Positions 1,071 through 46,462 are shown, counted from the first letter of the stretch. The stretch: DNA of 64,000 nucleotides from an uncultured Candidatus Saccharibacteria bacterium (GCA_964391595.1 CAYMMM010000001.1:4708-68707); one strand, 5' to 3'. Notes: generated by a model not told the origin, from the sequence alone. Translations and numbers: made by a program.

Positions 1071-1845
1071 AGCGAAAGTGTGTCTTTTTATACTTACCAG
1101 TCAGCAGGCCAAGTTTGATCGTTATTAGGTCAAAAAATACCTGTAGTGCTACTTTGATTGACTTAAGCTTGGAGCCACTTGAGATTTTTGAGCCCTCGAC
1201 GACGTCTTTCCAGTCTGGGACTTCGATAAGCTCAATACTATAGCCGAGCTTGCGTGCAAGAGCCAGTATTTCAAGATCGAATCCCCAGCCTAAAATCCGT
1301 TGTCTTCCAAAAAGCTCGTGAGCGGTTTGTCTTTCAAAAGCTTTAAACCCACATTGGGTGTCTGATATCCCCGGTACGAGGAGTGTTTGTGCGAGCCAGT
1401 TTCCGAAGGTAGAGATGAACTTACGGATGCCGGTGTGTGAATCTTCTAGGTTTCGAATGCATATACCAACCTGTCTTTTTTGTTCGATGAGCTGATATAC
1501 GTCCTCGAGGTATTTTAGGGGTGTCGCTAGGTCCGCATCCATGAACATGACATACTCCCCGCGCGCGGCAAAGATGCCATCACGTACTTGCTTGCCTTTA
1601 TTGTTTCCCTTGATTATGCCTGGACCTGTTTGAAGAAACTTGAACGATGTGAAGTGCTTACTTTCTGCTCTAGCTACTTTTTCGGTTTGATCACTGGACA
1701 TGGCGTCGACAACAATTACTTCTGCATCGTGCGCGTGTTCCTTGAGATACGTAGCAAGTGCCTTAAGGGTTGCACCAATACGTTTCTCTTCATTCAAAGT
1801 TGGGATGAGTATACTAAGCGTTGGCTTCCCAGCACGGGCATTCAT
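1048..1845 (-). CDS. GT2 polyprenol-phosphate sugar synthase (Dpm1/GtrB-like)
   Basis: 265 aa with an N-terminal LSILIPTLNEE stretch, a DAD motif (MFMDADLA), and overall GT2_2 architecture. Confidence 0.8.
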   Translation of the reverse strand: MNARAGKPTLSILIPTLNEEKRIGATLKALATYLKEHAHDAEVIVVDAMSSDQTEKVARAESKHFTSFKFLQTGPGIIKGNNKGKQVRDGIFAARGEYVMFMDADLATPLKYLEDVYQLIEQKRQVGICIRNLEDSHTGIRKFISTFGNWLAQTLLVPGISDTQCGFKAFERQTAHELFGRQRILGWGFDLEILALARKLGYSIELIEVPDWKDVVEGSKISSGSKLKSIKVALQVFFDLITIKLGLLTGKYKKTHFRYEPYKTQ

Positions 1846-3476
1846 CGGTTGACCTCGACCGTGTAGAAGAGTGTTCGCTGTGGGAAGCTCGGCGAAGTGA
1901 TCGCTTTGACTGGAGCAGCTGGGTACTTTGCCTTGAGGGTATCAAGTACGTATTGTCTGTGCTCGTTGTTTTGCACGAAGAAGATAGTAGGGTCTTGTGA
2001 AAGTGGTACTGATTTGACTTGCTCCCATTCGAGCCGCTTCCAGCCAGAACCGCGATCGAGCCCAAAGCCATCATCGATGTTGTATTTGTAATCGGATTTT
2101 ATGCGTGTCAGATAATCAAAACTACGGATAGAATATCCATCTACGACTAGATATGTGGTGGGCTGGCTTGAGCCCTTGAGGGTCGTGTTGTAGAGCTTGG
2201 CCATTTCTGACATATCTTCAGCATACGCATCGTATGTCTGGACATCCCCCGCCCACGCCACGAAGTATGCTTTATAGCTCTGTGCCAGTGTGGCTGCGAG
2301 GAGTATCAGTATAAATGTGAGCCCGACGTTGCGTGCAATTGAGTTGATTGGGAATATCGTATACCACCTACCGATAAAGTATGACAAGCCGACAGCCGCC
2401 AATATCATTACTGCCGGAGATGAGCCGATCGATCGTAGGCCGTGTGGCAGACCTTCCGCTGTGAGTGCAGCCGGCAACATCATGGCTGCAAAGATACCTA
2501 AGAGTGCCACATACCGCGAATGTCGTAAAGCGTACAGAGATATAAGTATGCCTAGGATAAACATAATGCCTACGAATGTATTCAGGTATGGTTCTGCAGG
2601 GATGTTGTGGCGTGGATTTGTGTCTCCAGCGAAATTGTATTGCAAGAGAGTCTTGGACACGCTGTCTGCAAGCGTCTGTATTGGTTTGCCTTTGTTCAGC
2701 TCTTTATTGAGGAAGCTGGTAGCACCGGCGCGTGCTGCGGCATCTTTGTGGGTTATGCCATATATACCAAGCGGGGCAAGTACCACGAGACATGCAATCA
2801 GCCCACTTCCAACCTGCCTCCAATGTGACTGCAAGAATGTGCGCCTAAAGAGTGCTATGTATATGAGGAGTCCTACCACTGCAGCAATCATGAGCTGAAA
2901 TGCAGTATACGTGTAGGCTCCGAGACCCAAAAAAATTCCAGCGCCAATGAAGTAATGCATCTGCTTGGTCTTGTAGGCACGGCCACCGAAGTATGCCACG
3001 AGTGAGACCATGAGCGCTGTCATGCTGGCGCGAAAGCCATCTCGAGAAATGACTACTACCCAGGGATTAATCGCCATGAAGAATGCTGCCAATAAGCCTA
3101 CTCGACGGCCGAACCAGTCAGTTCCCCAATAGTATACAGCAATGACAGCGAGGACACCGATCGTAGCCGGCGCGATGCGCAATGCCAGGATGGTGTTGCC
3201 CATAAGCCATACGAAGATAGCCTGAAGGAAAAAGAAAAGTGATTCTCGCGGACCATTTGTTGCATACAGGGGCCGAATGTCGCGACTAAAGATACGGAAG
3301 ATATCCTGCCCGTTCGCAGCTTCGTCTGGGTGAAGGCCTGGTGGAAGCTGATCGAGTTGGTAAAAGCGGAAAAAAATTGCAAGCAGCACGATAGTCGCCA
3401 GTACAATCCATGTGCCGTATTTGGCGATAAAGTGTTGTTGTTTGGTGGCCTTCTTCGGCTTCGGTCCAGGAGCCAT
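1842..3476 (-). CDS. GT39/ArnT-family membrane glycosyltransferase
   Basis: 544 aa and multi-TM, with an LHPDEAANG loop motif. It overlaps the upstream GT2 gene by 4 nt, consistent with an operon. Confidence 0.75.
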   Translation of the reverse strand: MAPGPKPKKATKQQHFIAKYGTWIVLATIVLLAIFFRFYQLDQLPPGLHPDEAANGQDIFRIFSRDIRPLYATNGPRESLFFFLQAIFVWLMGNTILALRIAPATIGVLAVIAVYYWGTDWFGRRVGLLAAFFMAINPWVVVISRDGFRASMTALMVSLVAYFGGRAYKTKQMHYFIGAGIFLGLGAYTYTAFQLMIAAVVGLLIYIALFRRTFLQSHWRQVGSGLIACLVVLAPLGIYGITHKDAAARAGATSFLNKELNKGKPIQTLADSVSKTLLQYNFAGDTNPRHNIPAEPYLNTFVGIMFILGILISLYALRHSRYVALLGIFAAMMLPAALTAEGLPHGLRSIGSSPAVMILAAVGLSYFIGRWYTIFPINSIARNVGLTFILILLAATLAQSYKAYFVAWAGDVQTYDAYAEDMSEMAKLYNTTLKGSSQPTTYLVVDGYSIRSFDYLTRIKSDYKYNIDDGFGLDRGSGWKRLEWEQVKSVPLSQDPTIFFVQNNEHRQYVLDTLKAKYPAAPVKAITSPSFPQRTLFYTVEVNR

Positions 3477-3991
3477 TACTCGTATTCCTTAAAGACGAAG
3501 CGCTTATAGGTGAGATAATTCCATGTCAAGCTTGCTAGGGTTGCTACAGCTTTCACGCCATTGGTGACAATAAATTTGTCATCGACGAGCCTGGTGACAC
3601 CGAGGACTTGTGCGAGATGGACGCCTACTCCCACGGGCCAGAGCCAAACATGTTCAAAGAAATATATGATACCGCTCTGAATGACGTACAGACCAAACGC
3701 AGTCACTAGGAAGAACCGCGCAGCCTGTTCGAACTGTGAATCGTGGGTATGAGCTTTGAAGACAAAATTGCGATTGGCAAAGAAGCTAAAAAGCATAGCT
3801 ATAGTTGTTGCTGGAATGTTTGCGGCGAGGTCGCTCAGTGCAAAAACTCTCGTGAGGAGGTTGAGGATGCCGAAATCAATCAGCGTATTGAGCACACCGA
3901 CGATACCAAATCGACCTACTCGAGCAGCTTCTTTGGCGGCTGTAGCTTTTGGTGTGGTAGGGTTTTTGGGTTTAGACTTCGTCTCTGGCAT
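3476..3991 (-). CDS. GtrA-family membrane protein (putative flippase)
   Basis: 171 aa with 4 TM helices and GtrA-like motifs (GVLNTLIDFGILNLL). Its stop overlaps the start of the GT39 gene. Confidence 0.75.
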   Translation of the reverse strand: MPETKSKPKNPTTPKATAAKEAARVGRFGIVGVLNTLIDFGILNLLTRVFALSDLAANIPATTIAMLFSFFANRNFVFKAHTHDSQFEQAARFFLVTAFGLYVIQSGIIYFFEHVWLWPVGVGVHLAQVLGVTRLVDDKFIVTNGVKAVATLASLTWNYLTYKRFVFKEYE

Positions 3992-9160: not shown

Positions 9161-10840
9161 TCAGTCTTCGGTGAGTGCAGCCTGACGCCGCGCCTCAAGT
9201 CGCTGCTCAGCTGCGATACGGCCGAGATCATATCGTTCATAGTCGGCGTAGCGCATCATCTCTGCAATTGCAGTGTGCCCGGCCACATTCTCGACTGCTT
9301 CGTGTATCGACTGACAGACCCGTCGGTAGTCGTCGTGGCCGGCGGGCTGAGTACGCAGCTCCACCATGTGTGTTAGCGCCCGGGCGTTGATCTGGATCGC
9401 GTAACGCATACGGTATGCGAAACCGAGTGCGTATTGAGGCTGAGCGTCAGCGGGAAAGACTCCACGCAGCTCGTCGAACAGCGCCGCCTGGGCTTCGAGT
9501 GCAGCGTCGTAGTGACCGCGCAGTCCCGATAGCTCAATCAGCGGTGGCACGATGTAGCCATGCACCGGCGTCAGCGTCTGCCAGGTCATGGTCAGCATGC
9601 GGTGCCGCTGAAGGTCGCGGAAGGCGCCGTAGTCGCTGAGGATCTCGAAGCGGTAACCAACCATCTCAAGCTGTCGCCCTGGCTTGTGACGCCGGTTGTG
9701 TGATCGATCACCGAAGTACGCTTCGAGTATCGACAACTTCTCATGATGGCTCATCAATTCCACGCGCCTACGCAGCTGTACCTCTGAGAAGTGCGTCTGC
9801 TCTGCCAGGATCGCGGCAACGAGCTTCACCTCATAATCGGGATCGAAGTCGAGTAGCTGTACCTCTGACGAGGTGGGCTCGAGCGTCAAGTCAGCCAGGA
9901 GTGCATCGGCTCGTTCGTTCACCGCTTCTCGATTTTGCTCGAGATAAGCACTCCAAGCGTTCCCGCGGTCTGGAAGATCGACGCGCTGCAAGAAGGATGG
10001 AATGACCTTGCGCAATTCCTTCAGCATCATGCCCGCGTATGCACGAGCTTCGGGCAGTGGATGAGCTCGCATGCGCAGCAACAGATGCTCGTACGACTGG
10101 CCCGAGCCGTAGATGCCCAAGTTCGAGATCGTCGCCGCAGGCAACAGTCCTCGAACATTGTCGAGCACTTTCGAACGTACCGACGCTTGCCAGGCAGGAA
10201 TCGACTGCCCATCAGCACGTGGATACAACTCCTCGGCCAGCGGCATGAGTTGCTCGAGCAGCCAGCTGTACTGCTGGAAGGTGATGTCCATGACATCCAC
10301 ATAGCGACCTGCCAACGGTGAGGCCATGATCTCGGGGTCGCGATAGTAGCGGTAGCGACCGTTCACGGTGCCGTCGTACCTGATGTAACGCGTCGATTGC
10401 TCGAGGTAGCCCATCAGGCGACCCCACTCGAGGATCTTGGTCAGCAGATTGCTGGCCTGCTCGCAGGCGAGGTGAGCCCCGCCCAGCTGCGCGACTGAAT
10501 CGTCGCCGTAGTCGCTGAACACCTTGTCGAACAGCTGTGTTCCGCGTTGAAGACCTGCGCCAGCGCCAGGTGCCACGTCCTCGGCTTCCTCGAGCTTCTC
10601 GTAGAACTCGGTGAGAAAAAGCCGACGCAGGCTCAACTCGGTGCGTGAGTAGCGCGCGAACAGTGCGGCGCGCACCACTTCGTCAAGTCCGCGCACTGCG
10701 AAGACCGGCAGATGCGTGTTGGTGAAGTAGCGCTCGAGGATTGCACACTCTGCTTCGGTGAACTCCTCGGCCGTGTAGCCGATGATGTCGGTTGGGGACA
10801 TCTTGTTCTCTCTTTCTGTCATGGTACTCTTGTCGAACAA
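9161..10840 (-). CDS. ThyX-family (Thy1, FAD-dependent thymidylate synthase-like) protein, double-length form
   Basis: 559 aa. The C-terminal region matches the ThyX C-terminal signature: NARALTHMVELRTQPAGHDDYRRVCQSI versus ThyX NARSL..LR...HAQ.EIR. An RHR motif is present (LQRHRMLT). The N-terminal half looks like a degenerate second copy. The gene appears G+C-rich. Confidence 0.6.
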   Translation of the reverse strand: MFDKSTMTERENKMSPTDIIGYTAEEFTEAECAILERYFTNTHLPVFAVRGLDEVVRAALFARYSRTELSLRRLFLTEFYEKLEEAEDVAPGAGAGLQRGTQLFDKVFSDYGDDSVAQLGGAHLACEQASNLLTKILEWGRLMGYLEQSTRYIRYDGTVNGRYRYYRDPEIMASPLAGRYVDVMDITFQQYSWLLEQLMPLAEELYPRADGQSIPAWQASVRSKVLDNVRGLLPAATISNLGIYGSGQSYEHLLLRMRAHPLPEARAYAGMMLKELRKVIPSFLQRVDLPDRGNAWSAYLEQNREAVNERADALLADLTLEPTSSEVQLLDFDPDYEVKLVAAILAEQTHFSEVQLRRRVELMSHHEKLSILEAYFGDRSHNRRHKPGRQLEMVGYRFEILSDYGAFRDLQRHRMLTMTWQTLTPVHGYIVPPLIELSGLRGHYDAALEAQAALFDELRGVFPADAQPQYALGFAYRMRYAIQINARALTHMVELRTQPAGHDDYRRVCQSIHEAVENVAGHTAIAEMMRYADYERYDLGRIAAEQRLEARRQAALTED

Positions 10841-15061: not shown

Positions 15062-16387
15062 CTACTTTCGGGTCACGAATTCACTGATGTTTACGGGTAG
15101 TTTTTCGTGGATGCTCGTGAAGAATCGTTGCGCTGGGGTGCGAAGTGCGATAAGTGCGATCGTAGCGATGATTGATAGCCCAACCAGGATCGTAATGACT
15201 TGGATAATGGCTGACTTCCGTGCCTTCTGGTGGGGCTTTGTGATGATGAGCTGTGAGACGGCTGATTTATAGCTCGTGTGAGCTATGTGGTGATAGACCA
15301 GTGCCCAATATCCTTGTGACCACAGGGTAAATCCAACCACGGCAGCATACATGAGGACTGTCGACAGTAGGATGAGGCCAGCTCGAGCGATTGCATGGCG
15401 ACCCACGGTGAATTGGCCGTAGCTAGCAGTAGACCAGATGAGAGCGAGCAGTAACCCGACTGCTAGTGTGGCGCTGAGGAGCCAAAACAGGCCAAATGCG
15501 AGGGTTCGCAAGAGTGTTCGCAATGTAAGTCCGAGGCTTTTGACGACTAGAAAGGCGGTGGATTGATTTGTGACCGCAAGCATGATTCTGACGATGGTTC
15601 TGTGCACAGCCATTATAGCTACCCCCAGGAGGAAAAGGACGAGGATAACATAGATCGAGAGACTTTTAATTTGAGTTAGATTTGAGTCAAATATCCTCAG
15701 AATGACTAGAGCTGTGAGGCTTGAAAAAGCCATGGTGGAGAATAGCTCGAATGCACTGATTGAGATGAGGCGATGAGATTTGGCCAGAGCTTGCCAACCA
15801 TATTCTTCTGCATCGACTGATCGATGGTCGATACGACGGATATTTGCTGCATAACTGACGAGTTGCAAGATGTGCCGAACCAGCCAGAGAATGAACGCAA
15901 CAGCTGCGATGGCGATCACGCTTATCACTATTCTGATATAAGGCGCGGTGAGAAGGCCGCGAATAAGCATGTATGCTTGCTGGATGGTGATGTTTTGGCT
16001 TTTTGTCAGGCTTAAGATTGCCCAAGGCGTGGCGGCGCAGAGCCAAAACCAGGGTGAGAGGATGGACATCACGAGTGCGGCATCAAAAGCGTGACGGTCT
16101 TGCTTTTCGCGGAAAGAACGCAAGATGACAGAAAGTACTGATTTCTGATGTGTCTGATGCTTAGGCTGCGCGGGCAGCGGGAGCGCTGGATGGCTCACTC
16201 GATGTGGGTGCATGAATTCTGCAGCGTCTGTATCGAGTTCGGAGCTTGCAACTGTCTGTGATTGCGGCGACTTTAGTGCGGACTGTCGTGTCGCACCAGT
16301 AAGCTTACGTCCGCTTTCGATCGAATATCGAATGCCGTCCACTGTCACGTGTCTTTGCGGTTTTTGATGATGAGTAGTGCGTTTCAT
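15062..16387 (-). CDS. Polytopic membrane protein (hypothetical)
   Basis: 441 aa with more than 8 predicted TM helices and a His/Gln-rich N-terminus; there is no family I recognise. Confidence 0.5.
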   Translation of the reverse strand: MKRTTHHQKPQRHVTVDGIRYSIESGRKLTGATRQSALKSPQSQTVASSELDTDAAEFMHPHRVSHPALPLPAQPKHQTHQKSVLSVILRSFREKQDRHAFDAALVMSILSPWFWLCAATPWAILSLTKSQNITIQQAYMLIRGLLTAPYIRIVISVIAIAAVAFILWLVRHILQLVSYAANIRRIDHRSVDAEEYGWQALAKSHRLISISAFELFSTMAFSSLTALVILRIFDSNLTQIKSLSIYVILVLFLLGVAIMAVHRTIVRIMLAVTNQSTAFLVVKSLGLTLRTLLRTLAFGLFWLLSATLAVGLLLALIWSTASYGQFTVGRHAIARAGLILLSTVLMYAAVVGFTLWSQGYWALVYHHIAHTSYKSAVSQLIITKPHQKARKSAIIQVITILVGLSIIATIALIALRTPAQRFFTSIHEKLPVNISEFVTRK

Positions 16388-16396
16388 AGTTGAGGC

Positions 16397-17236
16397 TTAA
16401 CGATTATGCCAGAGAAAAAGTAGCTTTTCGTATGTCGGGATGCTGACTCGCTGGCTGTATACAGTATACTGCTTTTGCTTAATCCTTTCGAGTAGCTCGG
16501 CATAGAGTCTCAAGATATACCGCACTGGCCGCTGGTAGCTAGGGTGTAGGTCATCTATAGCACGAGCTGCGTGCGTCAAGTAGGTCTGCGCGCGCTTTGT
16601 CAGTATGGTTAGCGCACGTTCGAGACCGGCTTGATTTGTGCGTTGTAGGAGTTGCGCGGGCGTGAGTTGCGCTTCTCGCAAAACACTCTGGGGTATGTAT
16701 ATTCTCTGTAAGTCTATGTCGGTGCCGACATCGCGAATAATATTGACATACTGCATACCGATACCGAGCTGCTTTGCGCCGAGTAATGTTGAACGCTTGG
16801 TAGCGCCGAGTATGCGCGCGCACAGTATGCCGACGATCCCAGCGACCTCGTAGCTGTATCGATCGAGCTCTGAGATCGTGAGAGGCTGTCGAAACACGAT
16901 GTCACTTGTGACGCCATCAAGTACGGTTTCGAGCTCTGCGATTGGAATCCGATATACTTTGATCAGATTAAAGACAGCCGGCCATATATCCGTTTCGACT
17001 GGTGGCGATTTGCGGATGTGCAGCGCTCGTCGCATCATCATGAGCTGTCGCCGCTTCATGCTTGATGTGAGGGTCGTACTGTCAGCAATGTCATCGGCTA
17101 CTCTACAAAATGCGTAGAGTGCTTGGATCGCTTGCCTCGTTTCACGGTCAAAAAGATAGGTCGCGAGGGTAAAGTTGGAACTTGCACGGCGCGTAATTCG
17201 TGCGCACGCCGCTTGGCTGGCACGCTGGCTGGTCAT
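16397..17236 (-). CDS. crtB: Phytoene synthase (squalene/phytoene synthase family)
   Basis: 279 aa with a DDxxD motif (RVADDIADS) and SQS/PSY family motifs. Confidence 0.8.
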   Translation of the reverse strand: MTSQRASQAACARITRRASSNFTLATYLFDRETRQAIQALYAFCRVADDIADSTTLTSSMKRRQLMMMRRALHIRKSPPVETDIWPAVFNLIKVYRIPIAELETVLDGVTSDIVFRQPLTISELDRYSYEVAGIVGILCARILGATKRSTLLGAKQLGIGMQYVNIIRDVGTDIDLQRIYIPQSVLREAQLTPAQLLQRTNQAGLERALTILTKRAQTYLTHAARAIDDLHPSYQRPVRYILRLYAELLERIKQKQYTVYSQRVSIPTYEKLLFLWHNR

Positions 17237-18324
17237 TTTGTCCTACTTACCAGGAAGTCAGTTAAAGCAATGAATTCATCACCGAGCCCGCCTGGGAGCG
17301 CAAGTTTACCGATAGCTTGCTTTGCTCGGGCGGCTTCTTCTTGTGCGAGAAAGGTTGTTTTTGCCTTTGCACCGTTTGCGCTGAGGATTTTGCGAACAAG
17401 TTTGAGATCAGATTGCGTGACATTTGGATTGCCAAAGAATTTCTTCAGAATGACAGATTGTGTCTCATCGGCAAATGCAAAGCCATAGTGCATAAGCAGT
17501 GTACGCTTGCCTTCACGCAAGTCCGAGATGATTGGTTTGCCGATTTCGCGCGCCGCACCAAACATGCCGAGTAAATCGTCAGTGATCTGGTATGAAACGC
17601 CAGCGTGGAGACCATACCGCTCTAAGATTTGTAGGATTGTTGGGTTGGCACCAGCCAAAATTGCTCCGCTACGAAGTGGTGTAACCATACTGTAGCGAGC
17701 TGTTTTGAGTATATAGATCTTTTTAATTTTTTCGATCTTGAGGTGCTGTTCGGTGCTGGCGAGATCGTCAAGCTGCTGTCCTCCGGCAAGTTGAAAGTGG
17801 AGTCGATTCAGTTCACCCTTGAGCTGACTACGAACCTCGAACTCCACCGGCATTGTATCTAGTACTTCGTGGCACATACCTAGAGCAATATCTCCAGCAA
17901 GGAGTGCCATGTTGCGAGCGTGTAGGCCCGTGTGCTCGTCAGTAAGTCGTCGTTTAAAGAGCCGGATATAAGAACCTGAAATATTTGGCCCGCCATAACG
18001 CTGATCGTCTTGATCCATAATGTCGTCGTGTATCACGGCAAATAGATGATAAAGTTCCCAGGCGACACCAAGCTGGATAGCCTCCTTCTCACGTTTGCCA
18101 CCCGCTACTTCATAGCCGAGTGCCACGAGATAAGGACGCAGGCGTTTGCCGCCGCGCAGACTAAATTTCTTAAGTTCGCTGATAAGCCGTCTGTACTGAC
18201 TATCGATTTTGCTCGCTTCAGTCAGTTTCTTATCCCAGAGCTTCGTCAGCTCGATATCGATACTAGTCTTGACCTGCTTAATGCGGTTCTGGAGTTGCTC
18301 AGTCGATGCTGCGTTTGTAGTCAT
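17233..18324 (-). CDS. crtE: Polyprenyl diphosphate synthase (GGPP synthase-like)
   Basis: 363 aa with both aspartate-rich motifs (HDDIMDQDD and QITDDLLG). It overlaps crtB by 4 nt. Confidence 0.8.
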   Translation of the reverse strand: MTTNAASTEQLQNRIKQVKTSIDIELTKLWDKKLTEASKIDSQYRRLISELKKFSLRGGKRLRPYLVALGYEVAGGKREKEAIQLGVAWELYHLFAVIHDDIMDQDDQRYGGPNISGSYIRLFKRRLTDEHTGLHARNMALLAGDIALGMCHEVLDTMPVEFEVRSQLKGELNRLHFQLAGGQQLDDLASTEQHLKIEKIKKIYILKTARYSMVTPLRSGAILAGANPTILQILERYGLHAGVSYQITDDLLGMFGAAREIGKPIISDLREGKRTLLMHYGFAFADETQSVILKKFFGNPNVTQSDLKLVRKILSANGAKAKTTFLAQEEAARAKQAIGKLALPGGLGDEFIALTDFLVSRTK

Positions 18325-19801
18325 GGTTTATCCGTTCTGCGACCAGCTTACCAGAAAGCGTCACCATCGGTACACCACTACCGGGATAGGTTGAAGCCCC
18401 GACAAAGTACAGGCCTTTGATATCGCGACTCACGTTGTGAGGTCGGAAGTAGCCGGATTGGAAAAAGTAGTGACTTAAGCCAAAGGCAGACCCATCGGTG
18501 AGATTGTATTTCGTGAGGAAGTCTTCCGGTGTGAAGACAGCTTCTGTCTTGATATGCTTCTTGAGATCTAGCTTCATAATAGTCTTCATGCGTTCGAGTA
18601 CGCGTGCTCGAGTTTTCTCGACCGCTGCATCCCAGTCGATGTCTGACTGCAAATTTGGTACAGGCACGAGTATGTAGAGTACATGCTTGCCCATCGGCGC
18701 CAAACTTGGGTCGGTTTTAGTCGGGATGTAGACATAAAACGCGGGGTCATCTGGGAGTTTCTTCTCATGGAAGATTTCGTTGAGATTGTGCTTGAAGTCA
18801 TCGGAGAAATAGACATTGTGATGGAGCATTTCTGGCAAGTCATGATCTACTCCCCAATAAAAAAGGAGTGCACTCGAGGCTTGCTTGAGCTTGGCAGTTT
18901 TTTTGTCAGACATTTTGGGTCGATGTTTGGCGTCCACAAGCTCGCGATATGAGTAGGTCAGGTCAGCGTTCGATATGACGATATCGCATTTGATGACTTG
19001 CTTATCCGTTAGCTCTACGCCCTGCACTTTGCCGTGATACACAAGAATCTGATTGATGGGTGTGTTGAGGCGTATGGTCACCCCTAGCTTCTCGCAGAGC
19101 TGCTGCAAGGCTCGTGGTAGCGCGTGCATCCCACCCTGCGGATACCATATACCTAGTCCCGTCTCCATATAGCTCACGACAGAATACACTGCAGGCGCTT
19201 CGTATGGGGTAACCCCGAGGTACATTGATTGGAAGCTGAAGAGTTGGCGCAGCCTCCAATCGGTGAAGTAACGAGAAACAAATGTGTATAGCTTGCTCAG
19301 TCCCCTGCCCTTGAGCAGTTCAATGCCAGCTGGCACATCAATAAAATCAGTCAGTTTGTCGAAGTTCTTGTCGATAAACTTCGCACGAGCGAGTCGATAG
19401 ATTTTGGCGACGTCAGCAAAGAAGCGATAAAACTGCTCGGGTGCCTTCTCATCTATGCGTGCGAGTTCTTTCGTGAACCGTGGGAGGTTTGAGCTCACCT
19501 CAATCGTCTCTCCGTCTGGAAACCACGTTTTGTAGTTTGGTTCGAGCTGCGAAAGCGAGACATAGTCGTCAAGATTTTCACCGCAATACGCGAATGTATC
19601 ATAGAGGACGTCGGTCATCATGAGGATGGTTGGCCCCATATCGAATGTGTAGCCGTCTTGCTTAATGACGTGAGCGCGACCACCTACAATAGATTCTTTT
19701 TCGTAGATTGTTACCTTATACCCATCGTGTGCCATGCGGGCTGCTGCACAGAGACCACCGATACCCGCACCAATTATTACCACCTGTTTCTGTTTCGTCA
19801 T
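18299..19801 (-). CDS. crtI: Phytoene desaturase
   Basis: 500 aa with an N-terminal FAD fold (VVIIGAGIGGLCAA) and CrtI-type architecture. It overlaps crtE by 26 nt. Confidence 0.85.
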   Translation of the reverse strand: MTKQKQVVIIGAGIGGLCAAARMAHDGYKVTIYEKESIVGGRAHVIKQDGYTFDMGPTILMMTDVLYDTFAYCGENLDDYVSLSQLEPNYKTWFPDGETIEVSSNLPRFTKELARIDEKAPEQFYRFFADVAKIYRLARAKFIDKNFDKLTDFIDVPAGIELLKGRGLSKLYTFVSRYFTDWRLRQLFSFQSMYLGVTPYEAPAVYSVVSYMETGLGIWYPQGGMHALPRALQQLCEKLGVTIRLNTPINQILVYHGKVQGVELTDKQVIKCDIVISNADLTYSYRELVDAKHRPKMSDKKTAKLKQASSALLFYWGVDHDLPEMLHHNVYFSDDFKHNLNEIFHEKKLPDDPAFYVYIPTKTDPSLAPMGKHVLYILVPVPNLQSDIDWDAAVEKTRARVLERMKTIMKLDLKKHIKTEAVFTPEDFLTKYNLTDGSAFGLSHYFFQSGYFRPHNVSRDIKGLYFVGASTYPGSGVPMVTLSGKLVAERINHDYKRSID

Positions 19802-19826
19802 AATGTTATCAATTATAATCTAGAGT

Positions 19827-20225
19827 ATGGCTTGGCTCTATACTCAATGGGCATATATCGTGATTTTATGCGTTTCACTGACGGGGCTCACGATACTAGA
19901 TTGGCGACACAACGCATTGCTTTGGAGAAGCGCTGCGAGCAAGCAAGCTACACTTGCGACACTCGGCTGCATGCTTGGGTTTTACCTCATTTGGGATTTT
20001 GTAGGTATTTGGCTTAAGATTTTCTCGACGAATCCGCGATATGTCGTAGGGGTCTACTTCTTCACGCGAGATTTACCGATTGAAGAAATCATCTTTCTTA
20101 CGTTGCTCACATATGTGATCCTATTAGTTGCGGCGTTTGTCGAGAGATTCTCATACAAGTCTCAAAGTAAGACGCATACTAGAAGGGCTAAGTCGAAAAT
20201 AAAGCATAAGCGAGGGCGTGTGTAG
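19827..20225 (+). CDS. Lycopene cyclase domain protein (CrtYc/CrtYe-like half)
   Basis: 132 aa and 3-TM, a small lycopene-cyclase-domain protein. It starts only 25 bp from the divergent crtI. Confidence 0.6.
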   Translation: MAWLYTQWAYIVILCVSLTGLTILDWRHNALLWRSAASKQATLATLGCMLGFYLIWDFVGIWLKIFSTNPRYVVGVYFFTRDLPIEEIIFLTLLTYVILLVAAFVERFSYKSQSKTHTRRAKSKIKHKRGRV

Positions 20226-20587
20226 TGCGATACACATATGTGCTCCTTGCCTGTGTATTTCTGTCCATCTCGTGGTTGATTGTACAGCGGCTGCAATATC
20301 GTGCATCGAAGAATATCCTAATTGTTACCACAATTTGCTACACGATGATGGTGGTGTTTAACACCTATCTGACCTCGCTCCCCATCGTGCAATACGATTG
20401 GCAAAAAGTGCTTGGTATCAAAATGATAAGCTGGCCAATAGAAGATTTAGCCTACTTGGTGGTAGGATTGTATATGTCCCAGGCCGTGTATCAGTATTGG
20501 CTCCAGCATTATGAAAAGAAGCAGCAAGCACAACCCGCGCAGCGCCCAACGGCAGCAGACAAGAAGCGTAACCCAGCCAACTCTTAG
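20225..20587 (+). CDS. Lycopene cyclase domain protein (CrtYd/CrtYf-like half)
   Basis: 120 aa and 3-TM, translationally coupled to the first half. Its C-terminal tail overlaps the next gene. Confidence 0.55.
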   Translation: MRYTYVLLACVFLSISWLIVQRLQYRASKNILIVTTICYTMMVVFNTYLTSLPIVQYDWQKVLGIKMISWPIEDLAYLVVGLYMSQAVYQYWLQHYEKKQQAQPAQRPTAADKKRNPANS

Positions 20588-20609
20588 TCAATCGCTCAGA
20601 GAAGTATTT

Positions 20610-22577
20610 ATGAGCAGTCGGCCGATTAGTTGGATTAATACTGCTGTACCTTTTGTAGTAGCGTATTTGATTGCTGGCGGCACGCTAGATCAGACGTTTC
20701 TAGCTCTCGCTACATATTTTCTCTTCCCGTATAACATTCTCGTGTATGGGGTGAATGATATTTTTGACTTTGAATCTGATATGAAAAATCCACGCAAGGG
20801 TGGTGTCGAAGGGAGTATCGTAGCCCCGGAACGACGTAGTATCGTCTGGCTTGCCATCGCACTGACGAGTCTGGTCTGGGGGGCGTGGTTGTGGCAGCTG
20901 CTCAAGCCAATTGAGATTGCTGCGATGCTTGTGGTTGGATTCTTGGCGCTGAGCTATTCGATCAAAGGACTTCGCTTTAAAGAGGTTCCTCTCCTTGACT
21001 CGATTAATTCTTCATTGCATTTTGTGGCGCCTGCATTTATTGGAGCATTAGTTGCGCCAAATCACCATGCGCTTGATTTGCCGCTGACTGCTTTTTTCTT
21101 CTGGGGTATCGCGAGTCATGCACTTGGTGCCATCCAGGATATCGAGCCTGATCGCGCGGCCGGCATTCGGTCTATCGCGACGCAATGGGGTGCCCGTCAA
21201 ACTATACGGTTTACGATTACTATGTATTTGTTGGCTTGTCTGAGTGTCATGTTTGTAGCTCCGCCAGTGTCGTTTCTAGCCACACTGTTAATCTCGCCGT
21301 ACGTACTCAATGCATGCTTTTTCTTGAAATATACCTCTGATGCACAGGCTGCCGAATATCGCCGGGCATGGACGAACTTCATGTGGTTGAATTTTATAGT
21401 CGGATTTTGGCTGACGCAATTGCTTCTTTGGACCTCAGATCCGTTTCAATTAGGACTCATGAAATATCAGATATTGCTGATCGTGAGTGTGTTGGTGAGT
21501 ATCGCACAGATGGGGCTCATCGCATACAACCTCGCACTTTTCCGACGTCCACAGACCACACGACTCGATGAATGGCCCCGTGTTTCGATACTGATTTATG
21601 CGTATAATCAGGCCGAAAATATTGCCAGCACCCTTCTGGCCGCGCTTGGTCAAAACTATCCTGATTTTGAAATAATTTTTACCGATCTTAACTCAGATGA
21701 CAACACCCTGAAGATTGCTTCTTCGTATGATGATCCAAAGTTACAGATTGAGAAAATCGACAAAATAAAGCCTGGCTGGAGTATACAGGCTTGGGCGTCA
21801 GATCAGCTCATGCGACGCGCGACTGGCGAATACGCAATCCTTGTGTCTGCTGATACGGTACTACACCCCAATGCACTGGCGCAAATCGCCAGCATTATGA
21901 CCGCTCAACGCTTACAACTCGCTTCCCTGCTCCCTGCTGATCAGAACAAATCATTCGCACAAAAAACGATATTAGCACACAATCAATACTTGCTCCTGGC
22001 TGCTTATCCAGCCGCGTACATGCAGCAACATTCTCCCGAGCGCTCGACTGTCCATGGCGGTGTCTTGGCGATGGCGGTAGATCCGGTACGAGAGCTCGGT
22101 GGTTTTGCGCTCATTAAGGCAAGCCCACTGGAAGAGCATGAATTGTTTCATCGTGCACGCCAGTTTGGACTAAAAGCCGGCCTCTTTAGGGCTAGCGACC
22201 TTGCTACAAGCCAGAATCACCTCGATATACGGTCGATTATCGCTGACGATATTCAGCGCATGTATCCTGCGTTAAGGTTCCACTTCCCTATCGCTTGGAT
22301 GTTGGCCTTGAGTGGCCTAACGATTTTTACAGGGCCACTGATTATTGCTGGCTATGCTCTCGCAACAGATAATCAAGCACTCCTCATGCTGGCACTTCTC
22401 GCATTATTCGCTCAATTGGTTACTCGTTGGATAGTAGCTTGGGAGAGTAAGCAAAATATGTTGGCGCAGATTCTTGCTCCGGCGACAAATGTTCTCGCGA
22501 TGGCTCTGATCTTAATATCCGTTCTGCAATATGAGCTGCTCAAGCCGCGTTGGCAAAATCGCACTGAGTTGGTATAG
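20610..22577 (+). CDS. UbiA-family prenyltransferase (lycopene elongase-like) fused to a GT2 glycosyltransferase
   Basis: The N-terminal half is polytopic with a UbiA Asp-rich motif (NDIFDFESD). The C-terminal half is a GT2 domain (VSILIYAYNQAENI...FTDLNSDDNT) followed by TM helices. The listed ORF start at 20511 is probably too far upstream; ATG 20610 (MSSRPISW) fits better. Confidence 0.6.
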   Translation: MSSRPISWINTAVPFVVAYLIAGGTLDQTFLALATYFLFPYNILVYGVNDIFDFESDMKNPRKGGVEGSIVAPERRSIVWLAIALTSLVWGAWLWQLLKPIEIAAMLVVGFLALSYSIKGLRFKEVPLLDSINSSLHFVAPAFIGALVAPNHHALDLPLTAFFFWGIASHALGAIQDIEPDRAAGIRSIATQWGARQTIRFTITMYLLACLSVMFVAPPVSFLATLLISPYVLNACFFLKYTSDAQAAEYRRAWTNFMWLNFIVGFWLTQLLLWTSDPFQLGLMKYQILLIVSVLVSIAQMGLIAYNLALFRRPQTTRLDEWPRVSILIYAYNQAENIASTLLAALGQNYPDFEIIFTDLNSDDNTLKIASSYDDPKLQIEKIDKIKPGWSIQAWASDQLMRRATGEYAILVSADTVLHPNALAQIASIMTAQRLQLASLLPADQNKSFAQKTILAHNQYLLLAAYPAAYMQQHSPERSTVHGGVLAMAVDPVRELGGFALIKASPLEEHELFHRARQFGLKAGLFRASDLATSQNHLDIRSIIADDIQRMYPALRFHFPIAWMLALSGLTIFTGPLIIAGYALATDNQALLMLALLALFAQLVTRWIVAWESKQNMLAQILAPATNVLAMALILISVLQYELLKPRWQNRTELV

Positions 22578-22620: not shown

Positions 22621-23547
22621 CTAGCGACGCGGGATCGCTGTTTTTATGCTCGTGTTGGGGTGATAACGATTCCAGACGAGAATGGCCAGGATATATACCG
22701 CGATACAAACACCCAAGGATACGAAGCTCGGTATGAGGAAATGACTGGCGATCTGTAGGCTAAGGTTGCCTGGAAGATTTTCATAAGTCATAGCACCATC
22801 ATTGCGTAAGGCGTACGGGATGCCCAAGCAGATAATGCTGATTATGAAGCTTTCGATTGCGAGTGCGAGGCTTGGAGCTTGCAGCATACTGACCTTCGTG
22901 AGCCGCGCAAATATTGTGTATAGCACTAGTGCGACAGTGAAGATTATGCTGAGTGCAATTTGGGCAAGACCGATGTTTTCATACAATGTCTTTGCGAGAG
23001 TGATTACTTTCTCAAACTCTTGTTGAGATGATTGTGATTGCGTGTCGGTTTGTGCGCCCTGTGCGCCGGTCAGCTGCTGCAAACTTGATAGTTTTATCTG
23101 ATCCGGTACTTGTTGCGTGAGGGTCGCTTTGAATAACGTAAGTTCTGCTTGAGGTAATCCATTCTGCTGAAGGGCGGCGATCAGATCATCCTTGATTGGC
23201 TTTATGACCAAGATAACATCAGGTGCAGGGGTATCTTTTGGTTGCTGAAACCAAGTGACAACATCAATGAGCGCAGGCTGAATGATCTGCTCGACTGCAT
23301 CATCAGTCACCGCCGTGTCGACGGATTTCTGGAAGATTTCTTGATCTTTTTCTGGCACTCGTTGAGATGAGACAATAGATGAGCGCATTTGATCGCTTAC
23401 TACTGCATATACCCCACCGTTTTTGAGAAGACGATTTGTGCTTGTGCCTGAATTAAAAATTGAGAGCATGACAAAGCTGCTGAGCAAGAACGGAAAACTC
23501 AAGACTATAAAAAAAAGACAGAGGCGGCGCAAGATTGTCATATTCAC
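22621..23547 (-). CDS. Membrane protein (hypothetical)
   Basis: 308 aa with N-terminal and C-terminal TM segments and a Q/S-rich middle region. Confidence 0.45.
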   Translation of the reverse strand: MNMTILRRLCLFFIVLSFPFLLSSFVMLSIFNSGTSTNRLLKNGGVYAVVSDQMRSSIVSSQRVPEKDQEIFQKSVDTAVTDDAVEQIIQPALIDVVTWFQQPKDTPAPDVILVIKPIKDDLIAALQQNGLPQAELTLFKATLTQQVPDQIKLSSLQQLTGAQGAQTDTQSQSSQQEFEKVITLAKTLYENIGLAQIALSIIFTVALVLYTIFARLTKVSMLQAPSLALAIESFIISIICLGIPYALRNDGAMTYENLPGNLSLQIASHFLIPSFVSLGVCIAVYILAILVWNRYHPNTSIKTAIPRR

Positions 23548-26005: not shown

Positions 26006-26728
26006 ATGGTAGATCGTATATCGAGTGATAAACCTAAGCTTCATATCTCACGCACACAATTAAGGCAAATGTGTGCGGTATATGAGCCAGGCGTTGGGTT
26101 AGATCCAGACAATTCAGAACGACTCAATCGCATTGATCGTGAGTTTCGAGAAGCGTTCAAGTTGCTCGAGGATATGCCGAAGAGTGTAAGTATCTTTGGC
26201 TCAAACGTCGTCACGGAGGGCAATCAATACTATGGTGAAGCGAGAAGGCTAGCTGCAAGACTAGCGCGCGAGCTACACTATGCGGTTGTGACTGGTGGCG
26301 GCCCAGGTATTATGGAGGCGGCAAATCGAGGTGCTGCAGAGGCGGGCGGGGTTTCAGTTGGTTTTACAATAGACATCGCACACGCCGAGCCGAGCAATGC
26401 GTATGCAAACCGCGAACTCCCCTTTCATTATTTCTTTACGCGCAAGGTGGCATTAAGTTTTGCTGCCAGTATGTATATTTTCTTCCCCGGGGGCTACGGG
26501 ACACTCGATGAGTTTTTTGAACTCATCACCCTAATACAGACTCGTAAGATCCAATCAATTCCTATCGTGTGCTTTGGGACAAGATATTGGCATCCCGTGG
26601 AGCGTTTGCTCGATACATACGCGCGTCAGGAGGGTTATATTTCTGATAATGATCTCGCACTTTTCACCGTTACTGATGATCTTGATGAGATCATTAGGCT
26701 GGCTCGTCAGGCGCCGCTGCGCGAGTAA
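26006..26728 (+). CDS. LOG-family protein (TIGR00730; cytokinin riboside 5'-monophosphate phosphoribohydrolase-like)
   Basis: 240 aa with the GGGPGIMEA and PGGYGTLDE motifs. Confidence 0.8.
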   Translation: MVDRISSDKPKLHISRTQLRQMCAVYEPGVGLDPDNSERLNRIDREFREAFKLLEDMPKSVSIFGSNVVTEGNQYYGEARRLAARLARELHYAVVTGGGPGIMEAANRGAAEAGGVSVGFTIDIAHAEPSNAYANRELPFHYFFTRKVALSFAASMYIFFPGGYGTLDEFFELITLIQTRKIQSIPIVCFGTRYWHPVERLLDTYARQEGYISDNDLALFTVTDDLDEIIRLARQAPLRE

Positions 26729-33527: not shown

Positions 33528-34100
33528 TTAGTTGAAGCGAACGATCATCCAGCCAGCTACCATCACAGTCCAGGCAGCCCAAAACGCAAGATCATACCGT
33601 TTGGCGACTGCATGTGCGAGTAAGGTGCGTGTCGGTCTATGTGGGAAGTCCTCGACATTTAAGCGTAGCCAAACAAGGTTGAGTAAAATAACTGCCCCGT
33701 AGCAAAATATGCAGAAGATACACAGGCTACCGATCACGAACGTACTTTGCCAGAGATACCAAGCTCCGAAGAGCAAGAAAAAGACGCTTGCAGCCTGCAG
33801 GCTTAGGCGCAGATTGCGCGAGAGCTGAGCACCGGTCAGTCCGGCTAGTCCAGCGCCCAGTAGAACCGCAAAAAATGCCAGACACATGATAGCGTTTGAG
33901 AAGCCAAAGACCGAGGATTGCCAGGCACCGAAGACATTTGAGCAACTGAAGACACTATTGAGGTTACAAAAGAGGTCTTTCGTTGGTGCTTCGGCGTATT
34001 GGATGCGCTCGATAATTTGGATAAATGATGCTGTTCCGCCGACGAGTGCGGCACCGACGACTGTCTGCCAGAGATAGAGATGTTTCGTGGGCTTTGTCAT
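33528..34100 (-). CDS. VKOR-like membrane oxidoreductase (putative)
   Basis: 190 aa, polytopic, with a loop Cys pair and an intramembrane CIFC (CxxC). Confidence 0.5.
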   Translation of the reverse strand: MTKPTKHLYLWQTVVGAALVGGTASFIQIIERIQYAEAPTKDLFCNLNSVFSCSNVFGAWQSSVFGFSNAIMCLAFFAVLLGAGLAGLTGAQLSRNLRLSLQAASVFFLLFGAWYLWQSTFVIGSLCIFCIFCYGAVILLNLVWLRLNVEDFPHRPTRTLLAHAVAKRYDLAFWAAWTVMVAGWMIVRFN

Positions 34101-35588: not shown

Positions 35589-36365
35589 ATGAAATCATCT
35601 ACACGACAATTAGAAATCATAAACCTAGCAACCGCTGCTCATGCCACTCCTGCCCACATTGTGTACACACCAGAAGAACATCGGGTGTGGGAGACCGTTT
35701 GTGATGCACTGATGCCTATCTGGGAAGCACGGGTTGCTTACGAGGTATTGATAGCTAGCGCGCGACTAAACTTACCCACCGGGTCGATCCCGCAACTGAC
35801 GGATGTATCGCGCGCACTTGAGTGTGTAAGTGGTTTTGAATTTCGGGCAGTGGGAGGACTGGCTCCGCGCGAAGAATTCTTTGGCAATCTAGCCCATAAA
35901 CGCTTCTTGTCTACCCAGTACATTCGAGATGCGCAGACACCGTTTTACACCGAGCAGCCCGACATCATCCATGAAGTAATTGGGCATGCGACCTTACTAG
36001 CCGATCCGCAGCTGGCTGAGCTGCATCGCTTGGCTGGAAAAGCATTAATATCTGTAGAGACCGAATCGGCTAAGCAGTTCATCGCAAATGTCTGGTGGTT
36101 TTCGGGAGAATTTGGCCTGGTGCGCCAAAGTGATGGCATTCGTGCTGTTGGAGCAGGGCTTCTATCATCAGTGCATGAGCTGCAGAATATGCTGCAAGCT
36201 AAGCTCGTCCCGATGGACCCGACTGTCATGGGTCATACTTCGTATGACATTGATCAGCTTCAGACTACGCTCTTCGTGGCTGAATCGATGGCGCAGTTTG
36301 TGCAGCTCATCGGTGACTTTTTTAGGAAAGTGGATGACCAGATGATTGCCGAGATTATGATGTGA
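35589..36365 (+). CDS. phhA: Phenylalanine 4-hydroxylase (biopterin-dependent aromatic amino acid hydroxylase)
   Basis: 258 aa. The PDIIHEVIGHATLL segment carries the two iron-ligand His residues, and the length is typical of prokaryotic PAH. Confidence 0.8.
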   Translation: MKSSTRQLEIINLATAAHATPAHIVYTPEEHRVWETVCDALMPIWEARVAYEVLIASARLNLPTGSIPQLTDVSRALECVSGFEFRAVGGLAPREEFFGNLAHKRFLSTQYIRDAQTPFYTEQPDIIHEVIGHATLLADPQLAELHRLAGKALISVETESAKQFIANVWWFSGEFGLVRQSDGIRAVGAGLLSSVHELQNMLQAKLVPMDPTVMGHTSYDIDQLQTTLFVAESMAQFVQLIGDFFRKVDDQMIAEIMM

Positions 36366-45252: not shown

Positions 45253-45645
45253 TTATTTCGTCTTTGAGGATCTCTTTAATATCGAGTTTACCTTTTCAAC
45301 TATAGTGTCGAGTGAAGTGTTTGACTTCAGTATGTAGTCAACTGCACCCGATATACTTAATTCGACCCTCCTATCAGTACTATCGAGATTGCTCATGACA
45401 ATCACTGGGATATCTTTTGTTGAAGCTTCAGACTTAATCTCTTCGAGCACATCCCAGCCTGTCGTGTCGGTGAGCATCACATCGAGCAAGACCAAATCGA
45501 TATCATGACTCACCTCTTTTAGACCCTCGCTACCTGTTCGAGCCGACTTTACTGCATATCCGGCATGCTTGAGCGATTCACAAAGTGCAGTATTGAGTGC
45601 TGCTTCGTCATCAATTACGAGTAAAGTATATTTCTTGTCTGACAT
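45253..45645 (-). CDS. Single-domain response regulator (receiver only)
   Basis: 130 aa with the phospho-acceptor Asp pocket (DD...D...K) and a C-terminal LKSNTSL tail. Confidence 0.8.
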   Translation of the reverse strand: MSDKKYTLLVIDDEAALNTALCESLKHAGYAVKSARTGSEGLKEVSHDIDLVLLDVMLTDTTGWDVLEEIKSEASTKDIPVIVMSNLDSTDRRVELSISGAVDYILKSNTSLDTIVEKVNSILKRSSKTK

Positions 45646-45670
45646 TACACCCTCCTTGGGTAGGTATTAC

Positions 45671-46054
45671 TTATGCTAATCGCTGCTTCACTAGCTGGAG
45701 TAGAAGCTCAATGGACGTATCTGACTTCACGAGATAGTCGTTGAGCATACCATCTTTGCGCACTTGATTCAGGTTTTTCAACATTTCTTCTTCTGTAGTG
45801 ACATTTGAGAGAATAATGACTGGTACCTGTGCACCCCACTCATCCTCGCGTAGCTTTGTGAGCATTTGTTCTCCACTCATCTTAGGCATCAGTAAGTCTA
45901 ATACAATGAGGCTTGGCTTTGACTCGAAGGCTATCTGTAAACCGTCTTCTCCATTGTCGGCATGCTGGATTTCGTACCCGTGGTCTGTCAGAGCATCTAT
46001 AAGCCCCTTACGAAGACTTTGGTCATCCTCAACGATAAGAATGCGTTTTGTCAT
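45671..46054 (-). CDS. Single-domain response regulator (receiver only)
   Basis: 127 aa with a C-terminal VKSDTSI tail. Confidence 0.8.
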   Translation of the reverse strand: MTKRILIVEDDQSLRKGLIDALTDHGYEIQHADNGEDGLQIAFESKPSLIVLDLLMPKMSGEQMLTKLREDEWGAQVPVIILSNVTTEEEMLKNLNQVRKDGMLNDYLVKSDTSIELLLQLVKQRLA

Positions 46055-46065
46055 AGTAATGCCCT

Positions 46066-46449: not shown

Positions 46450-46462
46450 ACGCTATATTATA

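Follow-up and report, generated by a model that had tools for sequence, protein, structure and literature searches.

Gene content and layout of the carotenoid locus

We analysed a window of 64,000 nucleotides (nt) from the genome of an uncultured member of the Candidatus Saccharibacteria (GCA_964391595.1), in which six open reading frames (ORFs) between positions 16397 and 22577 make up a carotenoid locus of two units. A minus-strand unit, crtI-crtE-crtB, faces away from a plus-strand unit encoding two half-size lycopene cyclases and a protein that joins a UbiA-family prenyltransferase domain to a family 2 glycosyltransferase (GT2) domain (Table 1). We think it fairly probable that these genes together direct the synthesis of a glycosylated cyclic C50 carotenoid, a reading that draws on the domain identities and motifs of the six proteins, the family of the elongase, purifying selection, and the joint inheritance and joint loss of the genes in related genomes. 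Pfam and NCBIfam profiles, judged against curated cut-offs and with E-values that put chance matches out of the question, bore out all six ORFs and the domains that an initial annotation of the window had placed here (phytoene synthase, geranylgeranyl diphosphate (GGPP) synthase, phytoene desaturase, two half-cyclases and a UbiA gene). For the last ORF that annotation had recognised the UbiA prenyltransferase correctly and overlooked the GT2 domain behind it. Its description of the genome as otherwise reduced also held, the host being a member of the Saccharibacteria, within the Candidate Phyla Radiation (CPR), with ~49% GC.

The genes are tightly packed. On the minus strand crtI is the first gene of the leftward unit, the crtE-like gene overlaps the 3' end of crtI by 26 nt, and the start of crtB overlaps the crtE stop by 4 nt. 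On the plus strand half-cyclase 2 begins with a GTG codon that has one base in common with the stop codon of half-cyclase 1, and the two cyclase genes lie directly upstream of the elongase, in the order found in actinobacterial operons. The GC content of the locus (0.47-0.51) is the same as that of the remaining window, which also carries housekeeping genes (secE-nusG-rplK-rplA, rplJ with an L10 leader, dnaB, dnaX, thyX, tmk and rpoA), transporters and two-component systems. Where a homologue of the fusion protein or of CrtI carries a name, it is Candidatus Saccharibacteria, Saccharimonadales or Patescibacteria, and the nearest named locus, from a Saccharibacteria metagenome-assembled genome (MAG; locus L008), shows 77-84% identity.

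Table 1. Features of the carotenoid locus, with the positions of related loci discussed in the text. Window positions are counted from the first nucleotide of the window; positions in the last two rows are those within each named locus.
Feature	Position	Strand	Evidence
crtB, phytoene synthase, 279 aa	16397-17236	-	Pfam SQS_PSY E=4e-62
crtE-like short-chain prenyl diphosphate synthase, 363 aa	17233-18324	-	Pfam polyprenyl_synt E=4e-42
crtI, CrtI-family phytoene desaturase, 500 aa	18299-19801	-	TIGR02734 crtI_fam 522 bits (cut-off 238)
Divergent intergenic spacer, 25 bp	19802-19826	.	sequence
Half-cyclase 1, 132 aa, CrtYe-position subunit	19827-20225	+	TIGR03462 47.5 bits (cut-off 39.4)
Half-cyclase 2, 120 aa, CrtYf-position subunit	20225-20587	+	TIGR03462 41.9 bits (cut-off 39.4); Pfam Lycopene_cyc 38.3 bits (cut-off 27)
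UbiA-GT2 fusion ORF, 688 aa	20511-22577	+	UbiA E=5e-24 at aa 46-295; Glycos_transf_2 E=1e-15
Fusion: N-terminal extension (aa 1-33) and UbiA-family CrtEb-like domain	20511-21440	+	NF009608 313 bits
Fusion: linker transmembrane helix, aa 317-343	21459-21539	+	AF2 helix, pLDDT >90
Fusion: GT2 (GT-A fold) domain	21576-22280	+	Pfam Glycos_transf_2 E=1e-15; Foldseek
Fusion: C-terminal helical membrane region of GT2 module (aa 592-677), tail, stop	22284-22577	+	AF2 helices
Multi-pass membrane protein, 441 aa	15062-16387	-	conserved; no Pfam or NCBIfam match
Colinear unfused form of the cluster	L035 3940-8828; L065 2-2416; L077 3968-8825
Eroded loci, fusion gene	L006 8001-9986; L088 8001-10004; L089 8001-9953; L090 8001-10094; L091 8001-9983

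The enzymes predicted to supply lycopene were assigned with differing firmness. The best matches of CrtI in the Protein Data Bank (PDB) were a gamma-carotene desaturase (4REP, 314 bits) and the Pantoea CrtI (4DGK, 285 bits). The crtE-like protein matched the GGPP_syn and IdsA-type NCBIfam models, every one below its equivalog cut-off; its first motif, DDIMD, is preceded by Phe at position -5 and Ala at -4 and carries no insertion, a combination that under the chain-length rules for these enzymes fits a C20 product, so that the protein is probably a GGPP synthase. The two small proteins of ~120 residues belong to the lycopene-cyclase-domain family, as had been proposed: both exceed the TIGR03462 cut-off and both align with the genes at the CrtYe and CrtYf positions, each with the matching subunit of actinobacterial, Chloroflexota and other Saccharibacteria pairs. 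They share the motif PxE(E/D), which reads LPIEE in half-cyclase 1 and WPIED in half-cyclase 2, and in the alignment P84 and E86 of half-cyclase 1 are invariant. A phmmer search with half-cyclase 1 retrieved the first cyclase subunit of Actinobacteria at the equivalent operon position.

The two units are exactly 25 bp apart, as the initial annotation had it. From this distance it had been argued that the promoters must lie in coding sequence, which is right for any -35 element, since this would fall in the neighbouring gene; the spacer itself holds a conserved -10-like box. This box is the palindrome ATTATAAT at 19812-19819, which reads as a -10-like TATAAT on both strands and stands 7 nt before the ATG of half-cyclase 1 and 10 nt before that of crtI. 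Eight related loci conserve a box of this kind, TATAAT or TATACT, at 7-9 nt upstream of where the first half-cyclase gene begins, and in those that are compact the box is a palindrome too (ATTATAAT in L008, AGTATACT in L004). We conclude that the two units are probably transcribed divergently as leaderless mRNAs from the common palindromic box. A generic promoter scan gave no enrichment over shuffled sequences. Many first genes of operons elsewhere in the window, for example those starting at 26006(+), 27527(-), 33467(-), 34100(-), 46449(-), 53302(+), 54439(+) and 61063(-), likewise carry no Shine-Dalgarno sequence but a TATAAT-like box that begins 11-15 nt ahead of the start codon, and Shine-Dalgarno sequences are present at the ribosomal-protein genes and several internal genes; leaderless mRNAs may thus be common in this genome.

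An elongase joined to a glycosyltransferase

The N-terminal half of the fusion scored 313 bits on the NCBIfam model NF009608, above the cut-off of 217, and the genes at the crtEb position in Agromyces mediolanus, Glutamicibacter, Clavibacter and others scored 433-480 bits on the same model. Scores on two further models were lower (NF009516, 149 bits; NF010119, 145 bits), NF009516 being the best model for a separate group of relatives of ~280 residues. Grouping with menaquinone or heme-O prenyltransferases, which had been named beforehand as the outcome that would overturn the carotenoid assignment, was not seen: MqnP reached 19-20 bits and the 4-hydroxybenzoate octaprenyltransferase model 21 bits. 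The domain is 44-48% identical to those of more than 60 actinobacterial genes found in crtE-B-I-Ye-Yf-Eb operons, and its two Asp-rich motifs are intact (NDIFDFESD, residues 82-90; DIEPD, residues 210-214). Taken together, family score, identity and motifs support its assignment as a CrtEb-like lycopene elongase within the same NCBIfam equivalog as the actinobacterial crtEb-position genes.

With the UbiA domain as query, HMMER returned 695 relatives at E<=1e-10 from 1.84 billion representative proteins, and a genome scan then supplied the best 80 loci. These were mostly from Micrococcales and other Actinobacteria (Agromyces mediolanus, Glutamicibacter, Clavibacter, Microbacterium, Leifsonia, Cryobacterium, Paenarthrobacter and Brevibacterium), in which ORF calling and phmmer annotation gave a colinear crtE-crtB-crtI-cyclase1-cyclase2-elongase operon. 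C. glutamicum CrtEb, M. luteus CrtE2, Dietzia LbtBC and the haloarchaeal LyeJ strains were not among these best 80 loci; the anchors for comparison were the A. mediolanus, Glutamicibacter, Clavibacter and Microbacterium operons, with genes assigned by operon position, together with NF009608. A search of PDB sequences with the UbiA domain gave no match. Several other fusions occur within the same UbiA subfamily, namely cyclase-elongase proteins of 405-422 residues (e.g. P0124, 405 residues, from Paenarthrobacter; LbtBC type), a phytoene synthase-elongase of 630 residues (P0259), and a protein of 515 residues from Ca. Limnocylindrus (P0188/P0291) in which the elongase is C-terminal and the N-terminal ~235 residues give one Lycopene_cyc match; the length of that segment suggests that it may hold a second cyclase domain.

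The C-terminal half of the fusion consists of the GT2 domain (residues ~356-590) followed by three helices. The domain scored 58 bits on Pfam PF00535 (cut-off 23.3), and of the named glycosyltransferase models HpnB was aligned end to end over the model (85.8 bits, cut-off 379), with lower scores for a partial alignment to CruG, the carotenoid 2'-O-glycosyltransferase (46.4 bits, cut-off 600), and for HpnI (30.4 bits, cut-off 310). In the Chloroflexota fusion the CruG alignment spans the whole length of CruG. The motifs FTDLNSDD, SAD (the DxD equivalent) and PLEE (the ED equivalent) are conserved across 120 homologues, and Foldseek placed the GT-A part with membrane GT2 enzymes (PcManGT and the cellulose and hyaluronan synthases), matching GT2 structures with a probability of 1.0. 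On profile, motif and fold we assign the module to the GT2 (GT-A fold) glycosyltransferase superfamily; at best it would work like CruG, HpnB or HpnI, and by its scores it is not a member of those equivalogs.

An AlphaFold2 (AF2) model of the fusion, built from 83 homologues, was of high quality (predicted local distance difference test, pLDDT, 89.9; predicted template modelling score, pTM, 0.87). It places a nine-helix UbiA fold first, then a tenth linker helix, the GT-A domain, and three C-terminal helices (residues 592-618, 622-645 and 651-677) in a region that aligns across all fusion homologues. In the UbiA family the Asp-rich loops are cytoplasmic. Helix count and UbiA topology together suggest that ten membrane passes would bring the GT2 domain to the cytoplasmic side, where the Asp-rich UbiA loops also lie.

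Public gene calls begin the fusion ORF at 20610, giving 655 residues. We favour the start at 20511, because homologues lacking a Met at that position also conserve the segment LREVF just upstream of 20610, an N-terminal helix (residues 25-35) is both conserved in homologues and modelled with a pLDDT of ~90, and no in-frame start codon lies between the two positions. The earlier start gives a 77-nt overlap in a different frame with the 3' end of half-cyclase 2 (20511-20587). Comparable overlaps occur in the closest relatives (56 nt in L008, 74 nt in L004). In public annotation the fusion is called "prenyltransferase" or "4-hydroxybenzoate polyprenyltransferase", labels that can steer metabolic reconstructions toward quinone synthesis.

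Conservation and loss of the cluster among relatives

The UbiA-GT2 fusion falls into more than 100 sequence clusters in Saccharibacteria and is also present in Chloroflexota; so far, these are the only two groups in which we have found it. In both groups the fusion adjoins crt genes and half-cyclases, except in the eroded loci described below. The Chloroflexota operon reads FMN_dh-family gene-half-cyclase-half-cyclase-fusion-crtI-crtB, and its first gene, going by the Pfam family, is possibly a type-2 isopentenyl diphosphate (IPP) isomerase. Within Saccharibacteria, nine complete loci share a common layout (the window, L004, L005, L008, L009 and L011-L014), and in all nine crtB, crtE and crtI are linked to both half-cyclases and to an elongase with intact motifs. 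Called genes place the cluster beside secE-nusG-rplK-rplA and an unannotated membrane protein of ~440-490 residues in the window, L004 and L005, and three of the remaining six complete loci gave a weak match to the flanking membrane protein.

Between the window and L008 the six proteins are 60-84% identical, with proportions of nonsynonymous differences (pN) of 0.11-0.27 and of synonymous differences (pS) of 0.66-0.88. Synonymous sites are saturated in this comparison, so that pN and pS are given here and a ratio is stated only for half-cyclase 2 (0.18); the crtB product, at 72% amino acid identity to its L008 orthologue, is a case in point. All six genes are under purifying selection. CrtI falls into ~118 sequence clusters at 55-100% identity, of which all named ones are Patescibacteria, and the next matches are at 44-46%. 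Judged on these comparisons, the cluster is old and vertically maintained in the Saccharibacteria lineage. We rejected a recent transfer of the whole cluster from Actinobacteria on the 24-35% identity of CrtI, CrtB and CrtE to their actinobacterial counterparts, the deep Patescibacteria-specific CrtI group and the lack of any GC anomaly.

A second form of the cluster was found in three Saccharibacteria MAG loci, with a colinear crtE-crtB-crtI-cyclase-cyclase-elongase order and an unfused elongase of 285 residues. Contamination as the source of this operon was rejected for L035, where GC is 44-49% throughout and the flanking genes encode aminoacyl-tRNA synthetases.

A motif scan of 120 fusion homologues revealed 11 with degenerate UbiA Asp motifs and intact GT2 motifs. 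For five of these the genomic context was examined, loss of crt genes having been predicted beforehand, and all five had an eroded cluster at the same syntenic site. No crt remnant was left in L006, L089 or L090, only crtB in L088 and only crtE in L091; the degenerate protein P0092 fell below the NF009608 cut-off, at 136 bits. Set against the nine complete loci, motif state and cluster state were associated (Fisher p=5e-4, shared ancestry ignored). As the remnants differ and the degenerate members occupy two separate positions in the tree, crt genes were probably lost more than once, and the decay of the Asp motifs where crt genes were lost links catalysis by the UbiA domain to the presence of the crt genes and cyclases.

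The gene for the 441-residue membrane protein follows crtB in the same direction after 9 nt and may be co-transcribed with it. A protein of similar size occupies this position in relatives, loci without crt genes included, and a link with carotenogenesis is therefore improbable. In fact the cluster is bordered on both sides by multi-pass membrane proteins that match no family (15062-16387 and 22621-23547, both minus strand), and their similar-sized counterparts in relatives keep their positions after crt loss; at 49-56% identity to L008, against 60-84% for the crt genes, they are evolving faster.

A candidate C50 pathway, its alternatives and known systems

In the pathway that we propose, CrtE would condense IPP and dimethylallyl diphosphate to GGPP, CrtB would join two GGPP to phytoene, and CrtI would desaturate phytoene to lycopene. 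The UbiA domain, acting like CrtEb, would then add a C5 unit to each end of lycopene to give an acyclic hydroxylated C45/C50 intermediate, whose end rings a heterodimer of half-cyclases 1 and 2 would close. Finally, the GT2 domain, linked to the elongase by the extra membrane helix so that both active sites would be cytoplasmic, would transfer a sugar to the hydroxyls of the C50 diol, with the two divergent units expressed as leaderless mRNAs from the box in the spacer. The substrate and product of every step, the ring type, the sugar and its acceptor, and the function of the promoter are all put forward as predictions.

A number of observations weigh against a glycosylated cyclic C50 product. 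Genes of the methylerythritol phosphate (MEP) and mevalonate pathways and idi were absent among the ORFs scanned in the 64-kb window, and published Saccharibacteria genomes lack an IPP pathway (PMC6031116, PMC9166423); freshwater CPR classes other than Gracilibacteria, Saccharimonadia included, have just a C10-C20 prenyl module (PMC9166423). The GT2 domain reaches the cut-off of no named NCBIfam equivalog, and its ED motif has Glu in place of the usual Asp (PLEE). A CrtX-like GT2 orthologue was sought beside the actinobacterial clusters, where six loci gave just generic matches to the N-terminal half, and for this reason we do not claim orthology to CrtX. With CrtI, CrtB and CrtE only 24-35% identical to the enzymes of actinobacterial C50 clusters, the Saccharibacteria cluster is no straightforward copy of these. 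Lastly, the GT2 module is kept in lineages that have no carotenoid genes, which no simple version of the pathway accounts for; the module may thus have an acceptor other than a C50 carotenoid, or one in addition to it. As regards precursors, Saccharibacteria would need IPP for undecaprenyl phosphate in any case, so lack of the pathway would not refute a C50 cluster and would instead make it dependent on scavenged C5 units, which may come from the host.

The same lack of an IPP pathway in Saccharibacteria genomes (PMC6031116, PMC9166423), together with the survival of the GT2 module after crt loss, could be taken to mean that the cluster of an organism without C5 synthesis works only on prenyl diphosphates or carotenoids obtained from an actinobacterial host and that the GT2 domain mainly glycosylates isoprenoid lipids of that host. 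We regard this as unlikely, given that a complete set of enzymes from GGPP to lycopene, under strong purifying selection, would be needless if finished carotenoids were imported.

A second alternative has the half-cyclases as a CrtYc/CrtYd-type cyclase leading to gamma- or beta-carotene, a C40 product, and the UbiA-GT2 protein in an unrelated envelope role, for instance the transfer of prenyl or glycosyl groups to polyprenyl phosphates or the cell wall. Domain models cannot separate CrtYc/d from CrtYe/f, the two being homologous (PMC2889829), the fusion is retained without crt genes (or with one remnant) in the five eroded loci, and the window has other polyprenyl-phosphate-linked glycosylation genes (PMT_2, GT2 and GtrA at 1-3991). 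A C40 cluster of this class, however, needs cyclases without an elongase, whereas here an elongase with intact motifs is adjacent to the cyclases and is conserved and lost with them. The UbiA domain exceeds the cut-off of the model common to crtEb-position genes, its catalytic Asp residues decay exactly at the loci that lose crt genes, its subfamily includes fusions to a cyclase and to phytoene synthase, and the Chloroflexota fusion is embedded in a crt operon; we therefore consider a C40 product quite unlikely.

Homologues of lyeJ, crtD and cruF have been reported in Patescibacteria, one Saccharibacteria genome included, and interpreted as bacterioruberin genes (PMC9948471), which would make the UbiA domain an elongase/hydratase of the LyeJ kind, with a hydroxylated C50 carotenoid that is acyclic as the product. 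Homology does connect the elongase families, as the scores on NF009516 and NF010119 reflect, but NF009608 is the best family, two cyclase subunits with intact motifs are conserved along with the elongase, and neither a CruF-like (Caroten_synth) protein nor a second CrtI/CrtD-family gene was found among the ~56 ORFs scanned in the window. A bacterioruberin-type product thus seems very unlikely here, and the presence of cyclases with no cruF in the window suggests that the published "bacterioruberin" assignment for Patescibacteria should be re-examined. That the cluster is a silent relic of an old transfer, its expression or function gone, is highly improbable: related lineages are visibly losing it, but in the window all six ORFs and their catalytic motifs are intact, identity to L008 is preserved in the face of saturated synonymous sites, CrtI and the fusion each comprise more than 100 sequence clusters, and GC matches the surroundings.

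The C50 glycoside pathway thus being preferred, we suggest more tentatively a wider scenario, in which many environmental Saccharibacteria, as episymbionts apparently unable to make IPP or fatty acids, build a glycosylated C50 membrane carotenoid from host C5 units by means of a bifunctional fusion, and in which, after loss of the pathway, the fusion persists as a glycosyltransferase on a dead UbiA scaffold, re-purposed for another lipid that is possibly host-derived; we would not yet put its chances near even. CPR bacteria are usually described as lacking most biosynthesis, that of lipids and isoprenoid precursors included. That purifying selection maintains six pigment enzymes in more than 100 lineages of Saccharibacteria suggests that carotenoids in the membrane are important to these bacteria; protection from photo-oxidation and a more rigid membrane are plausible roles. 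If the IPP pathway is truly absent, the pigment would offer a visible read-out, traceable by mass spectrometry, of precursor transfer from host to episymbiont, and in carotenoid biotechnology a natural elongase-glycosyltransferase on one polypeptide could be a candidate component for C50 glycoside production.

Elsewhere in the window, positions 1-3991 (minus strand) hold two PMT_2 (ArnT/PMT-like) glycosyltransferases, a GT2 and a GtrA-family protein, a set of the polyprenyl-phosphate-sugar type that is another consumer of isoprenoid carriers in this genome. The ThyX homologue at 9161-10840 (minus strand) matches Thy1 in two stretches and, at 559 residues, is ~1.6 times as long as usual; its relatives at the same position in L088-L091 range from 340 to 599 residues. 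Three consecutive single-domain response regulators, a double-PAS histidine kinase and a small protein with an NAD-binding oxidoreductase domain are encoded at 45253-48752 (minus strand). A link of the cluster to light sensing was considered and dropped, as the first PAS domain of the histidine kinase (46463-48082) has a LOV-like motif, GQNHRILKSG, that lacks the photoactive cysteine; no rhodopsin was found among the window ORFs scanned. Unexpected for a reduced genome are a LOG ('Lonely Guy', Lysine_decarbox family) protein (26006-26728, plus strand), also noted in a rhizosphere Saccharibacteria genome (PMC6031116), a VKOR-family protein (33528-34100, minus strand) and a biopterin-dependent aromatic amino acid hydroxylase (35589-36365, plus strand).

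C50 clusters with this enzyme set are already known from Actinobacteria; our literature search did not find half-cyclases in Saccharibacteria, the elongase-GT2 fusion or the erosion series described. Among membrane GT2 enzymes, HpnB and HpnI of hopanoid synthesis and CruG, which makes myxol 2'-O-glycoside, resemble the module in the window in having a GT-A domain and a C-terminal helical membrane region, and differ from it in that the latter is joined to a prenyltransferase and scores far below their cut-offs. We also take CrtQ of staphyloxanthin synthesis to belong among such membrane GT2 glycosyltransferases of isoprenoid lipids. The bacterioruberin pathway of haloarchaea and Arthrobacter (LyeJ, CrtD and CruF) has in common with the window a homologous UbiA-family elongase, and its end product is likewise C50, as proposed here; in contrast to that pathway, the window has cyclase subunits and no detected CruF or separate CrtD, and its elongase scores best in another NCBIfam subfamily.

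Also close is the actinobacterial type of C50 operon. The C50 operon of C. glutamicum and CrtX have been described (PMC5401885), as have the A. mediolanus lctABC and Dietzia lbtA/lbtBC clusters (PMC6669644), and the colinear order crtE-B-I-Ye-Yf-Eb is the arrangement of decaprenoxanthin-type clusters (PMC5401885, PMC6669644). The actinobacterial C50 architecture that the initial annotation had seen in the window holds as to the enzyme set, with the qualification that the gene order is divergent and not colinear. The set is that of A. mediolanus lctABC, Glutamicibacter, Clavibacter and Microbacterium, the elongase belongs to the same equivalog, and the order cyclase1-cyclase2-elongase is kept, whereas the units in the window are divergent, crtI-crtE-crtB replaces crtE-crtB-crtI, the RND/MMPL gene and the CrtR regulator are missing, and the glycosyltransferase is fused to the elongase and not encoded separately. 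In this last respect parallels are LbtA/LbtBC of Dietzia sp. CQ4, which makes C.p.450, and the Paenarthrobacter-type fusions, where a second cyclase also lies immediately upstream of the elongase sequence and the elongase is likewise fused to an enzyme of the same pathway (PMC6669644). In the LbtBC type, however, that partner is the second cyclase and is N-terminal, whereas in the window half-cyclase 2 has an ORF of its own, in another frame than that of the elongase (20225-20587 and 20511-22577), and the partner is the GT2 module, joined at the C-terminal end.

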